Shown here piece by piece: positions 20,930 through 37,196 of a stretch of DNA of 64,000 bases. Location: the IMG/VR virus record IMGVR_UViG_3300037512_001142, positions 1-64,000 of that record; one strand, 5' to 3'. The position numbers were made by a program, and so were the translations under genes. This stretch comes from a virus. Lineage: Duplodnaviria > Caudoviricetes. Within the stretch, counting starts at the first letter, position 1; each line of letters begins with the position of its first letter. The notes beneath the pieces are model-generated. The model was not told the DNA's origin. It saw only the letters and a program-made list of their open reading frames with translations, and made no database searches.

Positions 20930-23900
20930 ATGGCATTAACATTTAATTCTTCAATCGGTGTTTTTTCAAACTGGCATACCTTTGATAACAGCTGGCTTTT
21001 CGAATATACTACGCTTACCAAGAGTGGTAGGGATGCTACGCAATATCCAGATGAAGAAGTCGAAACGGATAGATCCAAATATCCGGCCGGAACTATTTTC
21101 TTCGATAGTGACATTTCGAACTTTGTCATGTCTTCTTCTGTCAAGAACGTCTATATCGACAAGGTTCCGATTAAATTAAAGTCTTCGAATGTTCAATATA
21201 CAAGTATTACGAATGAACTTGATGATGAAGGTAAACCTACTGGTCGTGTAAAACACCGTTGTATCTTCATATTCGATTCCAAGACTCCGATTGACCCGGG
21301 TAATCTCAGCATTACGCTCGACGAACCAGTTAGTGCTTCTACTGCTGACAATATCCTTTACGAAGTAAGTCGAAAGAAAAATAAGATTACTTCCGAAAAT
21401 TGCATTAGTGATATTACTCTTACAAAGAATGCTGACCTTTATACGTTGACATTCAATATCAGTGTCGATAACGAGTCTTCGATTAATGACAAGAAGTTAA
21501 CCGACCACCAGATTTATGTTACTGTCTGGAATATCGCAGGTAACAAACTCACTGTCAATACTGACGGTACCTGGAAAACTATCCTCACCGAAAATGACAT
21601 CAGTGACGCCGTTCCGTTAATTATCACATTTACAGATCCGGTTCCGGAAAACCGAATCGTCTATCCGCCTAACGAAGGTTCTATCAGGGTTATCGTTCAA
21701 AACCCGAACGCGGAATTGTTTGACATTGTTCCGACAGTTCGTCTCGAAGATGACAGTATCGGTATTATCGACGGAGACCCGACAGCAAATTATGACCCAA
21801 GTACAGGTACATTGAGTTTCTATGTCCGTCCGATTACAGATACTGGTTATGTTGTTGTCAGTGCATGGCTTTCCGTAAACAATACAGAAATCGACGGTGC
21901 TCTCAAGGCTAAGACTTATGCCATCGGAATGGATGGTGAATGGATTGGCGCAACCGAAGGTCGTTTGATTCGTTTCAAACAGAATGTTCCTAAGTATTTG
22001 AAAAACGATAACTATGCCTCCTTTGTTCAGGCTACTGAAGATTTCTTCAATACTGTCTATACTTCTCTTACAAACGGTAAGCATATCAGTATTCTTGAAA
22101 AGTTTGCAAGAATCAATAACTTCAATGACATCAAGGCCATGGAAGCTCCGCTTATTGACCTTTATCGTAAACAGTACGGAATTCAAGTTCAACCGAACAA
22201 TGATGACCTCAATGTATTCCTTCGCAATAAGCGTTTGCCAGACCCAAAGCTTGCAAACAAAGCACAGAACGATGAATACATTTATGATGATGAAACTAAT
22301 GAAGATACCGATACAAAGGTATTGAAGAATTTCATGTTCCAGGATATTACTGGTCTTGAACTCAATAGCTTCATCAAGGACATTTATAAGAATATTCCAT
22401 ATTATAACCAGATGGCTGGTACTTATCGTGGTATCAAGTTTATTCTTGACCAGATGGGTCTCTGTGTAAAGCTTGTCGAAATCTGGTCTACTCGCGAAAT
22501 CGTGGATAACTTCGACCATAACGAAGTATTTGCTCGAGAAGACGAACTCAATGCCAACAGATTCAATCTCGATAGTGGTCTTGTTTCTGACATTGGCCGT
22601 TATTATCTTACTTCTCGTTTCGATGTCGACGTAATGGAAACTGGTCTTACCTTTAAGGAATTCAATGACCTTTCTTATAACATCGTCAAGCTTATCTTGA
22701 AGGTGAAACCGATTCACCGTGTATTGAGAAAGCTCGCATATATCCATGTAACGAATACCAATTTACACTTCCAGTATTTCCTTCTCGATAAGCTCGGACG
22801 AACCCAGGAAATTCCACGTTATAAGTATACTTGGAATCTCTTCGACCCTTATGCTGTTAGAAAAGTTAAGAATGATATGGGTGTTAGCCACATCTGGGAA
22901 ATCGATGAAACAATTTTCGCTGATGCATTATTCTTCCCGTTCAATACAGTAGACGCTCAGTATAAGCATGACTGGTCTCGTTATAATGCATACGGTGAAG
23001 ATTTTGGACCTGGTGGTGCCGCAGCTCCGACTAATGAATATGCAGTACGTTTCCTCAATGGTCGTGCCTATGACGATTTACCGACTGAAGATGGTACAAA
23101 ACCGTATTTCAATATAAACAATAGCCATGTTGACGATAACATTGATACTCTCTTGTCTAATGGTTATGCAGACGCTTCCAAGAATTCCTACAATAATCTT
23201 TTCAACATCGAAGAAAAGTTAAAGCGTTCTTTCTGTAAGAAAATCAAAATTCAATTCTGCTATCTTACTATCGTCAATGACCATAGCGATGAAGAAAATG
23301 AGTTAAGACTGTTTGCAAATAAAGTCCAGTTAACAGATGCTCCAGAGTTGATTAATACTATCAACCCGGTAGATCTTACATTTACTATTGAAAACAAAGC
23401 TCATACCTTAGATACATATAAATTTGTCGATTACTTCCTTGGAAAATATGACGCTACAACGGTAAGTGCCTTCGGCTTCGAGGGTGATCCTGCCGATTGC
23501 TGGAAAACTTATGAATTCGAACTTGGCACTATCGCTGACATCGTTTCCGATACTAATGGTTTCTGGCTTAAACTAAAGAGCAATGCTCAATCTATCTTGT
23601 CAGAACTTGGTATTGAACCGACGTTCAATGAAGATACTCATTACAATGCAGATGTCAACTATCGCCCAATTTGCTTGCTCGCAAAGATTGAAGATTTCCG
23701 TATCGCGCTCGGTACCGATTACTTGACTTATGAAGAACCTGAAGAAGTTGAAAATCCGCCTGTACCAGATGAACCATTAGAAGATATTGAATCTACTTAT
23801 ACTGACCGTAAGTATTTAGTTATAAAAGGCGATAAGACTTATGTTCCGCCAGTATTCGAACTTGCATGGTTTGCCGCTAGTAATGATACGAACTATTACC

Positions 23901-24364
23901 TTTTGAAAAAAGGTGGTAATAGACAGAATAAGACTGATTGGATTGAAATTTTCAGAAAGTCTAATTTCACGTTTACCGCACATGATAGCGAAAATGAATA
24001 TCCAAATACTATAGCAACATATATTTCCCGTAAAGGTGATACAGTTTATGATAATCATGCTAGAGAAGACTGGAATCTGTTGATATTGGATGATGACCAC
24101 TGGCCGATTGTTGAAAACTTGGGTGATATTGAATTAGATGAACAAGGACGACCAATAGTCATTGTTGAAATAAGATATGGTGAAACAATTTGGTATTCTG
24201 ATGAAGATTTAGGTGAAAACGATTCTGGACAGCACTTTATGGTTGTAGAAAAATCCAGAAAAGATGGTATAACTACAATCATATTTAGAATATCAGATAA
24301 CACAAATCCAGACTTTAGCTTACAAGAAGCCGATGGTGAATTCGCAATATCTTATCAAGAATAA
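20930..24364 (+). CDS. large baseplate wedge protein (gp7-like) with N-terminal Ig-like domains
   Basis: FVQATEDFFN..LEKFARI, YYNQMAGTYRGIKFIL..VKLVEIW, KVKPIHRVL typical of gp7/P2-I wedge proteins. Confidence 0.65.
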   Translation: MALTFNSSIGVFSNWHTFDNSWLFEYTTLTKSGRDATQYPDEEVETDRSKYPAGTIFFDSDISNFVMSSSVKNVYIDKVPIKLKSSNVQYTSITNELDDEGKPTGRVKHRCIFIFDSKTPIDPGNLSITLDEPVSASTADNILYEVSRKKNKITSENCISDITLTKNADLYTLTFNISVDNESSINDKKLTDHQIYVTVWNIAGNKLTVNTDGTWKTILTENDISDAVPLIITFTDPVPENRIVYPPNEGSIRVIVQNPNAELFDIVPTVRLEDDSIGIIDGDPTANYDPSTGTLSFYVRPITDTGYVVVSAWLSVNNTEIDGALKAKTYAIGMDGEWIGATEGRLIRFKQNVPKYLKNDNYASFVQATEDFFNTVYTSLTNGKHISILEKFARINNFNDIKAMEAPLIDLYRKQYGIQVQPNNDDLNVFLRNKRLPDPKLANKAQNDEYIYDDETNEDTDTKVLKNFMFQDITGLELNSFIKDIYKNIPYYNQMAGTYRGIKFILDQMGLCVKLVEIWSTREIVDNFDHNEVFAREDELNANRFNLDSGLVSDIGRYYLTSRFDVDVMETGLTFKEFNDLSYNIVKLILKVKPIHRVLRKLAYIHVTNTNLHFQYFLLDKLGRTQEIPRYKYTWNLFDPYAVRKVKNDMGVSHIWEIDETIFADALFFPFNTVDAQYKHDWSRYNAYGEDFGPGGAAAPTNEYAVRFLNGRAYDDLPTEDGTKPYFNINNSHVDDNIDTLLSNGYADASKNSYNNLFNIEEKLKRSFCKKIKIQFCYLTIVNDHSDEENELRLFANKVQLTDAPELINTINPVDLTFTIENKAHTLDTYKFVDYFLGKYDATTVSAFGFEGDPADCWKTYEFELGTIADIVSDTNGFWLKLKSNAQSILSELGIEPTFNEDTHYNADVNYRPICLLAKIEDFRIALGTDYLTYEEPEEVENPPVPDEPLEDIESTYTDRKYLVIKGDKTYVPPVFELAWFAASNDTNYYLLKKGGNRQNKTDWIEIFRKSNFTFTAHDSENEYPNTIATYISRKGDTVYDNHAREDWNLLILDDDHWPIVENLGDIELDEQGRPIVIVEIRYGETIWYSDEDLGENDSGQHFMVVEKSRKDGITTIIFRISDNTNPDFSLQEADGEFAISYQE

Positions 24365-31460: not shown

Positions 31461-31487
31461 AAATCACCCATGAGGGTGATTTTTTTT
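31461..31487. terminator. bidirectional terminator
   Basis: AAATCACCC-ATGA-GGGTGATTT followed by a T-tract. Confidence 0.8.
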
Positions 31488-32274
31488 ATTTAATTATATT
31501 CCTATATTGTTCGCTGAAAGTTTCTAGTACATTTAAATGGGATTTAATTATTCTAGCAATATCGTAAACATTGAATAGTTGAATCGGTATTCCGTCAGCG
31601 TCCTTGAAAGGTATAAAAAATTCTGATGTACAATACAAATTGTTATATTTAATCGAATAGCTCTTTACCTTAAAATCAACGTCCGTATTTGAATTCTGAA
31701 GCAAAAAAGCACTAAGATACTTATGGACTTCCTTAATATATGACTTGGCGTCAGTGTGGAGTTCCTGCAATCCCTGGGTCAGTCTAACCTTGATTTTAAC
31801 GACTGCTCCTTGTGGAGAAACAGATAAATCTAATAGAGCAGCGTTGCTGACCGGATGTAATGCAATAATCAGGTTATTGCGGACATGTGTTACTTGACGA
31901 GAAGTCAATTTAATAGGTTTAAGTTCTTGTGCCTTGTCGATTTCATTCTTACAAATTTCGGCACATGCGTATTCATCTTCGTTTGTATCGTACAAATCAG
32001 AAATAGTATCAGTTATCTTCTTGTTATCAAGTTCGGATTCTTCATATCCCAGTTTTTCAAGAATCGTGTGTACACGTTTCTTATATTTTAAAAAGTCTGT
32101 ATCAGCTGTAGCTTCGTTCATAGATTTATATAGTTTTTCAATGACTTTGGAGGCGGGAGTATCGTTAATATAGCATTCAAAAAGTTGTTCCATGTTATGA
32201 TCCACAATACCCACATCGCGATGAGTTCTAGCTAAAATCTTCTTAATATTATTACAGTAATCTCCAAAAATCAT
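31486..32274 (-). CDS. hypothetical late protein with repeated helical N-terminal module
   Basis: Own TATAAATA (32294-32301) and AAGGA SD; not intein- or nuclease-like. Confidence 0.7.
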   Translation of the reverse strand: MIFGDYCNNIKKILARTHRDVGIVDHNMEQLFECYINDTPASKVIEKLYKSMNEATADTDFLKYKKRVHTILEKLGYEESELDNKKITDTISDLYDTNEDEYACAEICKNEIDKAQELKPIKLTSRQVTHVRNNLIIALHPVSNAALLDLSVSPQGAVVKIKVRLTQGLQELHTDAKSYIKEVHKYLSAFLLQNSNTDVDFKVKSYSIKYNNLYCTSEFFIPFKDADGIPIQLFNVYDIARIIKSHLNVLETFSEQYRNIIK

Positions 32275-32304
32275 CTAGCAAATTTCCTTACTATATTTAT
32301 AGTT

Positions 32305-33264
32305 TTATTTAAGGAAACCGTCTTGCCATAATTCGTAGATTTTACCAATTTTGTCAGTTAAAACAATGCCTGTGGCCTCGTCCTGGACAGTAATTTCTTC
32401 ATTCGGATCCAAACATGCGTATTCCTGGTTGAAGAACTTAATACCATGGTCACGAATAACCTTCTTTCTGAATGTTTCATCACGACCGTCGATTTCATTC
32501 CAGGCAATCTTAGCCGGAACGAACGTATTGATACCAGCGAGAGCGCTTTGCCAAATCTTATAGAACTGGTTCATTCCCTTAGGTGTCGAGATAAGAATCA
32601 ACATACTGGTCTTACGAGAAGCCTGGGTCGGAATAACCGACATCATAAAATCGTCAGCATCCTGTTCCGGCAAGTGCGCAAATTCGTCCACTAGCATAAG
32701 GTCAACGGATTTACCACGAATAGCGGAAGAAGAACTAGCAGCACAGAAAATCTTACAACCGTTATCGAAACCGATTGATTTCTGTGACCAGCCACCACGG
32801 TCCGGATTGATACCTTGTTGCAGCCACATAGGAAGTCTCAGAACTGCAGCACGAATACGGAGCATAATTTCAATAGCCTGCGATTCCTTGTTAGCCAGAA
32901 CTGCAATAGTCTTGTCCTTGTGGAACAGTGCATACCAAAGAATATAAAGTGTAGCGATCGTAGTCTTGCCAGCCTGACGACCAACCGTAATAATTCTGTT
33001 ATTTCTTAGAACCTTTTCGCCCTTGGAATCGGTCATAACCGTTCCGTCATCGTTTCTCATGAAATAGGTTCCGCAAATTACCTTGATGAGACGTTCCTGA
33101 TATTCTCTCAATTTAATAGGCAATTCGCCATCTTCTGTCAAAATGTAAAAGTAATTGGCAAAGTGGAAAATATCCTTTGAGCACTTCTCGTATTCCGCCC
33201 ATTGTTCTGGAGTCATTTCCACATTTTCGTTGTGGCCTCTTAGTGTATCGGTTCCTTGGAACAT
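32305..33264 (-). CDS. gp17: terminase large subunit, ATPase half only, fused to a split-intein N-fragment
   Basis: Walker A GRQAGKTT, ILANK, AIRGKS, Walker B LVDEFAH, LISTPKG, FFNQEYA then CLDPNEEITVQD..; TAA stop, no RNase H nuclease domain. Confidence 0.93.
   Translation of the reverse strand: MFQGTDTLRGHNENVEMTPEQWAEYEKCSKDIFHFANYFYILTEDGELPIKLREYQERLIKVICGTYFMRNDDGTVMTDSKGEKVLRNNRIITVGRQAGKTTIATLYILWYALFHKDKTIAVLANKESQAIEIMLRIRAAVLRLPMWLQQGINPDRGGWSQKSIGFDNGCKIFCAASSSSAIRGKSVDLMLVDEFAHLPEQDADDFMMSVIPTQASRKTSMLILISTPKGMNQFYKIWQSALAGINTFVPAKIAWNEIDGRDETFRKKVIRDHGIKFFNQEYACLDPNEEITVQDEATGIVLTDKIGKIYELWQDGFLK
32308..32415 (-). other. atypically short split intein N-fragment (IntN, 36 aa)
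   Basis: CLDPNEEITVQDEATGIVLTDKIGKIYELWQDGFLK: block-A CL start placed at the QExx|C site of TerL. Confidence 0.85.
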
Positions 33265-33313
33265 AGTTTACCCCTTCATAGCTTATATCTTATTTATGTC
33301 TGAATAATTGCAA

Positions 33314-34028: not shown

Positions 34029-34143
34029 AATTAAAATCTCCAATGTTGTTTACTATATTTATAGAATTTTTACAATTTTTCTGGAGATTTAATTTCAGCT
34101 TTGCCTTATAAATAATATATAAAATCATAAAAAGGGATTTAAA

Positions 34144-37146: not shown

Positions 37147-37196
37147 AAAATATTTATAAATAATATAAATACAATAAAAGGTTTAAGGAGATTTTT

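Follow-up and report, generated by a model that had tools for sequence, protein, structure and literature searches.

Why does the gene for a T4-type large terminase (TerL) end at the boundary between its ATPase and nuclease domains, and where is the rest of the enzyme encoded? The locus that raises this question lies in an 86,732-bp IMG/VR fragment (G000) with a CheckV completeness of 21%, whose bases 1 to 64000 are the stretch analyzed here (64,000 nucleotides, hereafter the window). The gene runs on the minus strand from 33264 to 32305, and the ORF list and the sequence gave a 319-aa product plus a TAA stop (32305-32307, minus strand), which is counted in the end coordinate. Its first 283 residues (the N-extein; 32416-33264, minus strand) are a T4 gp17-type packaging ATPase ending in FFNQEYA. 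The other 36 residues (C284 to K319; 32308-32415, minus strand) begin with a cysteine (Cys1), carry block A and lack block B, and make up the candidate intein N-fragment (IntN), which is closed by the TAA. The initial annotation had described, without naming a strand, an ORF of this kind, with the ATPase motifs, the FFNQEYA end, a tail, and a stop codon, and all of these elements were seen at the locus.

The product (N-half) matched Terminase_6N in Pfam (E 2e-17) and PHROG 5989, a terminase large subunit profile only 347 positions long (E 3e-46). Profile A1 is an alignment of 22 N-half homologues, the window protein included, and it matched the ATPase domain of T4 gp17 (3ezk, 2o0h) with an E value of 6e-52. 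The Walker A motif GRQAGKTT (residues 95-102; 32959-32982, minus strand) and the Walker B motif LMLVDE (residues 189-194; 32683-32700, minus strand) were located by sequence and alignment. The Walker A residues G95, R96, Q97, G99, K100, T101, and T102 are invariant in A1, with position 98 variable, and so are L191, V192, D193, and E194 of Walker B. For most of the best matches listed among cultured phages, the likeness to their T4-type TerL proteins went no further than residue 284, and the alignment of the N-extein to contiguous TerLs broke off at QEV-E/C.

Eighteen of the 21 other A1 sequences end at the same point as the window protein or within about three residues of it. A large protein collection yielded 286 N-half homologues, nearly all of them 290-320 aa long with Terminase_6N only, and many are encoded on contigs of 170-680 kb. 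The 319-aa product was also present, at 99% identity, on contigs from several other IMG/VR metagenome datasets. The stop of the N-half is therefore not an assembly break, which the initial annotation had named, at about 32300, as something that would count against it.

What, then, is the tail? A cysteine directly follows QE[YF]x in 120 of the 120 homologues listed, whose tails are 30-76 aa long (median 35), so the tail is not a chance extension. Within the 22-sequence alignment the Cys after QEYx is invariant, and the tail conforms to C-[LIC]-x-x-x-E-x-[IV]-[TK]-[VI], a pattern resembling block A; behind it comes an I-x-x-L-Y with looser conservation. The window IntN aligns without a gap to the IntN of Vibrio phage K469. 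It has no His motif; block B is found instead on the partner fragment (H38 of the C-half, described below). In the AlphaFold model of the N-half (mean pLDDT 84.5), the pLDDT dips exactly at the extein/intein boundary, and IntN is modelled as a beta-hairpin and a short helix, in keeping with the opening strands of a HINT domain. A PDB search with the 43-aa tail or with A1 gave no intein or CatN match outside the ATPase domain, the piece being too short to carry much signal, and the likeness to CatN put forward in the initial annotation thus found no confirmation by sequence search. Judged by its conserved cysteine and block-A-like pattern, the 36-aa tail is an intein N-fragment, placed at a QExx-C site between the ATPase and nuclease domains as had been proposed.

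The initial annotation had seen no C-terminal intein fragment (IntC) or RNase-H half within about 31 kb on either side of the gene. The same is true of the whole 86,732-bp record, in which a model scan found no Terminase_6C domain and tblastn with nine IntC-nuclease proteins found no IntC-nuclease match. On its own, the lack of a partner in a 21%-complete contig says little. Two long IMG/VR contigs, G001 (411 kb, 98% complete) and G002 (291 kb), carry a 99%-identical N-half, and the study contig can be aligned to G001 collinearly from end to end (75-90% DNA identity, offset about +239.1 kb). The G001 N-half is at 271682-272638 on the minus strand. Its partner gene (C-half) is at 331182-332234 on the plus strand (L085:1060-2112) and encodes 350 aa; the two halves are divergent, with starts 58.5 kb apart. 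Projected onto the study contig, the partner falls at about 92.1-93.1 kb, and it is missing from the contig because this position is about 5.4 kb beyond the last base. From synteny with the relatives, we infer that this phage carries the second gene just past the contig end. The P0150 contig encodes a C-half with 94% identity but does not overlap the study contig, since its first base corresponds to a point about 2 kb beyond the study contig end.

An IntC match at 21050-21331 of the window (plus strand; 26% identity, E 2e-4) shows none of the intein motifs and was therefore set aside as probably a chance match. This tblastn match, obtained with a small database, covers IntC residues 37-126 and falls inside a 1144-aa tail/baseplate-like ORF (20930-24364). 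As to its own surroundings, the C-half in G001 (328-339 kb) and in the P0150 contig (L103) is found among T4_baseplate-matching genes and not in a head/packaging module, and its further neighbours include one gene with a RegA-like Translat_reg match, another with a weak match to sigma-70 region 2, and a gene for a Cpn60 chaperonin.

In the G001 C-half, the N-terminal 101 aa close with NGLINHN; CSFIGSS and the Terminase_6C domain come next. A gene of this form, reading IntC(..HN)-C-x-F into the nuclease, had been named beforehand as the partner to look for, and it was found in the collinear G001 and in the nine other longer relatives searched. Each of these ten relatives, five of which are complete or nearly so, has exactly one IntC-nuclease gene, and nine of the ten also hold the N-half. 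An alignment of 27 diverged C-halves (profile A2) showed H38 (block B, within [ST]xxH), Y91, N101, and C102 to be invariant, together with F104, G106, and S107 of the extein and the acidic nuclease residues D151, E209, D293, and D294. A cruder regex count over 86 further C-halves found Asn-Cys at the junction in 79, 57 of them as HN-C; the remainder look like misfires of the pattern. Some C-halves have G, Y, or K in place of the His before the terminal Asn. Such replacements are tolerated in some inteins, and the activity of these C-halves might be lowered.

Profile A2 matched CatC, the consensus engineered intein in PDB entry 6DSL_B, with an E value of 1.7e-12 over profile positions 2-103, which is the whole IntC, and the two have a common start (KVLTPSGFKSF vs KILCGNEFKTF). 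The next PDB matches were the gp41-1 and DnaX inteins. The strong match is obtained by profile only, as the single-sequence comparison of IntC with CatC was weak (E 0.07). At the profile level, the homology to CatC extends over the full length of IntC. As modelled by AlphaFold (mean pLDDT 83), the C-half contains a HINT domain and an RNase-H nuclease domain. Residues 1-100 of the model are all-beta and matched the VidaL (6vgv, E 1e-6), gp41-1, DnaB, RecA, and Cat inteins; against Cat, Foldseek gave a TMt of 0.70 at 27% identity. The N-terminal domain is thus predicted to have the HINT fold. The second domain matched the RB49 gp17 nuclease (3c6a) with a TMt of 0.86, and from residue 99 the C-half aligns to the start of the nuclease region of T4 gp17 (EHTAAFEGTS in gp17 vs NHNCSFIGSS).

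For comparison, the 36-aa IntN and the 101-aa IntC were joined in silico to give 137 aa. Residues 8-137 of this sequence align to a 135-aa mini-intein that is contiguous in another metagenomic TerL (P0124 residues 170-304), and the alignment crosses the junction ungapped (E 5e-11 in a small comparison). Once the 137 intein residues are removed, the exteins rejoin as QEYA-CSFIGSS. Contiguous TerLs read QEVE-CRFLGSS, QEVL-CKFLGSS, and QEFQ-CSFLGGS at this seam, and T4 gp17 aligns from the same point. The features of a T4 gp17-type terminase are complete across the halves, with Walker A and B in the N-half and the acidic ligands in the C-half of the relatives.

Our main reading, to which we give a probability of roughly 0.88, is that the large terminase of this T4-like phage of about 400 kb consists of two separately encoded polypeptides joined by protein trans-splicing. 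The initial annotation had suggested assembly by this route, and the two gene structures and their conservation, the homology to CatC, the predicted HINT fold, and the exact extein fit argue for it; the binding of IntN to IntC and the splicing itself are inferred. The gene in the window would supply the 283-aa ATPase domain with the 36-aa IntN, and the second gene the 101-aa IntC with a 249-aa RNase-H-type nuclease domain. IntN would dock into the nearly complete HINT fold of IntC, Cys1 (C284) would make a thioester, and Cys+1 of the C-extein would attack it. Cyclization of the terminal Asn (..HN) would then free a 532-aa TerL with the seam QEYA-CSFIGSS.

The same genes could instead encode a non-covalent two-subunit terminase, in which the intein fragments are only a dimerization handle, or the domains act separately, and no splicing takes place. 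Such an enzyme is conceivable in that the ATPase and nuclease domains of T4 gp17 fold independently and were solved separately (2o0h, 3c6a), and in that relatives carry a free-standing ATPase-only TerL paralogue, so that single-domain terminase proteins exist in the clade. A binding handle alone, however, would not need splicing residues, and the residues that serve only in splicing (Cys1 in all 120 homologues, the block B His, the terminal Asn, and Cys+1) have been kept over deep divergence. In addition, the split inteins AceL-TerL, GOS-TerL, and Cat all splice in vitro (PMC11766414). We consider the two-subunit explanation unlikely.

A further reading, in which packaging falls to another, intact terminase and the N-half is a remnant of terL (truncated or in decay) or a product of misassembly, is very unlikely. 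The missing nuclease half on the study contig and the second Terminase_6N paralogue of the relatives would fit such a case. Against it stand the recurrence of the 99%-identical product in other datasets and the more than 280 homologues with the same architecture. Furthermore, both TerL domain models were run over five relatives with complete or near-complete genomes and detected no intact TerL in them; an intact second terL was among the things that the initial annotation had said would count against it. Each of the five has one Terminase_6C match above the family cut-off, and this match is in the IntC-nuclease gene. The closest contiguous TerLs obtained in a search for longer homologues were only 36-41% identical, and some had cis-inteins at other sites.

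The paralogue itself appeared as a second Terminase_6N match, in an open frame of about 260-310 aa, in four of these five relatives (G005 is without it). We read it as a protein of 258-263 aa in two relatives, outside the study contig: in G001 at about 168.4-169.1 kb (L101:1359-2150, minus strand) and in G004 (L102:957-1733, plus strand). Both proteins stop a few residues after a QEY/SEF motif and have no Cys, no intein, and no nuclease domain, which also speaks against their being the packaging enzyme of a phage with a decaying terL. The Walker A and B motifs are intact in G004 (GKTT, DE) and degenerate in G001 (GITT, DD), where the Walker A lysine is lost.

Joining at the nucleic-acid level, by DNA inversion or RNA trans-splicing, is hardly credible. 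In its favour, the genes are divergent and far apart, and jumbo gut phages have been reported with many group I introns in terL (PMC12880540). Yet each of the two genes forms a complete ORF that has a start, a stop, and a promoter-like box of its own, and their ends are explained without intron-like sequence. Even with the DNA or RNA joined, the 137-aa intein would have to be removed by splicing. The terL pieces of the Jug phages, moreover, are adjacent and co-transcribed, unlike these halves.

The initial annotation had also held that the two halves are unlinked, in contrast to the adjacent layout of fractured genes, and the relatives bear this out. The halves are divergent and 58.5 kb apart in G001 and G002, and divergent and about 58.5-58.6 kb apart in G004 (416 kb, with terminal repeats). 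They are on the same strand in G003 (424 kb; about 53 kb apart), G005 (243 kb; about 129 kb), and G007 (248 kb; about 126 kb). Among the fragments, the arrangement is convergent in G006 (185 kb, 54% complete; about 47 kb apart) and G009 (139 kb, 37% complete; about 52 kb), and divergent in G010 (105 kb, 31% complete; about 52 kb). G008 (a 142-kb fragment, 47% complete) is the only one of the relatives compared outside the range of 47-129 kb; its halves are adjacent, head to head, with a 107-bp spacer. We inspected 80 loci together with their flanks (10 kb per side at most, less near contig ends), and a C-half was near the N-half in only four, all of the G008 type. No homing endonuclease was found between the halves in the relatives compared, including the 107-bp spacer of G008. 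The split arrangement appears to be fixed throughout a large clade of jumbo T4-like phages, one that is widespread and has been seen only in metagenomes.

Dispersal of the halves might itself be functional, with splicing as a regulated step, possibly a redox or timing checkpoint, and with different motor assemblies (the unspliced ATPase half, the degenerate ATPase-only paralogue, and the spliced enzyme) acting across the packaging stages of a genome of about 400 kb. Redox dependence would be possible because both nucleophiles are cysteines. We consider this proposal unlikely.

Promoter-like boxes lie upstream of both genes. Ahead of the N-half, a variant box, CATAAATA, was found 26 nt before the ATG (33291-33298, minus strand); it is a consensus match only, with a presumed promoter function, and it is preceded by a terminator-like hairpin and followed by a Shine-Dalgarno-like GAAGGGG. 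The C-half of G001 has the late-promoter-type box TATAAATA about 25 nt before its start, behind a terminator-like hairpin. In the 107-bp spacer of G008 (L093:2536-2642), TATAAATA boxes overlap on both strands, and the spacer looks like a bidirectional late promoter for the N-half and the C-half. The window has 32 copies of TATAAATA where 6.8 would be expected, a 4.7-fold enrichment, and none of 100 shuffles reached 32. Because both genes carry T4-type late-promoter boxes, co-expression of the halves late in infection is the likely timing, as far as consensus matches can tell; for the N-half of the window, which has only the CATAAATA variant, the timing is less certain. The initial suggestion that the split lets ATPase and nuclease expression be controlled separately is not borne out, given late-promoter boxes before both halves.

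The gene that follows the N-half had been credited with a promoter of its own, and at the motif level this is correct: an exact TATAAATA box (32294-32301, minus strand; a consensus match only) lies in the 30-nt spacer between the N-half and this gene, which starts at 32274. Examples of TATAAATA in the window are at 32294-32301, 34056-34063, and 37151-37171, and the boxes often form back-to-back pairs between divergent genes. The downstream gene itself (31486-32274, minus strand) encodes 262 aa, and its only family match was a weak one to the small-terminase family phrog_5110 (E 0.006); an Atlas look-up gave no match. It adjoins the N-half in close relatives; in the G004 clade it is on the opposite strand, no more than 1-2 kb away. 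Its product could be a packaging partner.

Short-IntN split inteins of terminases have been described before. The IntN and IntC lengths are 37 and 115 aa in GOS-TerL, 25 and 104 aa in AceL-TerL, and 30 and 104 aa in the consensus Cat (PMC11766414). Dassa et al. [quoted passage not shown] The system described here resembles AceL-TerL, GOS-TerL, and Cat in its host protein, a T4-type large terminase, and in being an atypically split class-1 intein. Its IntN is short and has the first splicing motif only (25-37 aa there, 36 aa here), and its IntC is long, with blocks B, F, and G (104-122 aa there, 101 aa here); Cys1 and Cys+1 are shared with AceL and Cat. It differs from them in being very divergent (the single-sequence E value of 0.07 given above) and in its hosts, which are jumbo phages of about 240-424 kb. 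A fractured gene in the sense of Dassa (2009) has a free-standing endonuclease gene between adjacent halves (PMC2677866), and GOS-TerL comes from a locus of this type, whereas the halves studied here are mostly 47-129 kb apart and endonuclease-free, as is even the adjacent pair of G008.

The Vibrio phages K469 (OZ195916) and VP-1 (MH363700) have an IntN at the same QExx-C site, which in both aligns to the window tail without gaps, and a related IntC with the nuclease in a second ORF. They differ in layout: the two halves sit side by side on one strand, and the annotated first ORF continues beyond IntN into a GIY-YIG/NUMOD3 homing endonuclease. This is the classical layout of an adjacent fractured gene. 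The proteins deposited as "terminase large subunit" in K469 (L098, OZ195916.1:1-3154) and VP-1 (L099) consist of the ATPase, IntN, and the in-frame endonuclease; the second ORF of K469, annotated as hypothetical only, is IntC plus the nuclease domain. Both look like atypical split (or frameshifted) TerL inteins that have gone unannotated in cultured phages. In Escherichia phage kaaroe (L100, MN850574.1, Krischvirus), terL is in two overlapping ORFs that are split inside the ATPase domain, between Terminase_6N positions 106 and 107. A TnsA-like/endonuclease-I-like domain ends the first ORF, and the second starts with an IntC related to that of the present system at a different insertion site.

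Unlinked genes for one essential enzyme are known from the cyanobacterial split DnaE, with dnaE-n and dnaE-c at separate loci (PMC2677866). That arrangement too is fixed in a whole clade and has no endonuclease nearby, and the protein is rejoined by trans-splicing; it differs in belonging to a cellular genome, in its canonical split (a long IntN and an IntC of about 35 aa), and in its host protein and intein lineage. The contiguous TerL mini-inteins of metagenomic T4-like phages (P0124 residues 170-304) share the 135-aa HINT domain, with end-to-end alignment, but they are unsplit, splice in cis, and are inserted at the Walker B site rather than at the ATPase/nuclease boundary. The split terL of the Jug jumbo gut phages was considered as the same phenomenon and rejected, as it involves group I introns in adjacent, co-transcribed pieces (PMC12880540). 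We found no paper on unlinked terminase halves in a phage in open-access text. The split intein of the window is a new and divergent member of the known AceL/GOS-TerL kind, with unlinked halves, so the initial claim of a new natural split intein stands for the member and not for the kind. The mechanism itself is not new; what is distinctive is the dispersed, endonuclease-free layout and its apparent fixation across a large jumbo-phage clade.

Split inteins with a short IntN are rare and are prized by protein chemists for synthetic-peptide labelling, and the clade supplies natural variants of them by the hundred (IntN 30-39 aa). Unless the halves are recognized and joined, these genomes will be mis-handled in terminase-based phage detection, in completeness estimates, and in TerL phylogenies. 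The layouts within the clade (adjacent-divergent, dispersed on the same strand, and dispersed on opposite strands) form a series that is good natural material for asking how the endonuclease disappears from a fractured gene and how its halves come to be separated. For the phages themselves, the trans-splicing reading would mean that an essential enzyme depends on the post-translational ligation of products from genes tens of kilobases apart.
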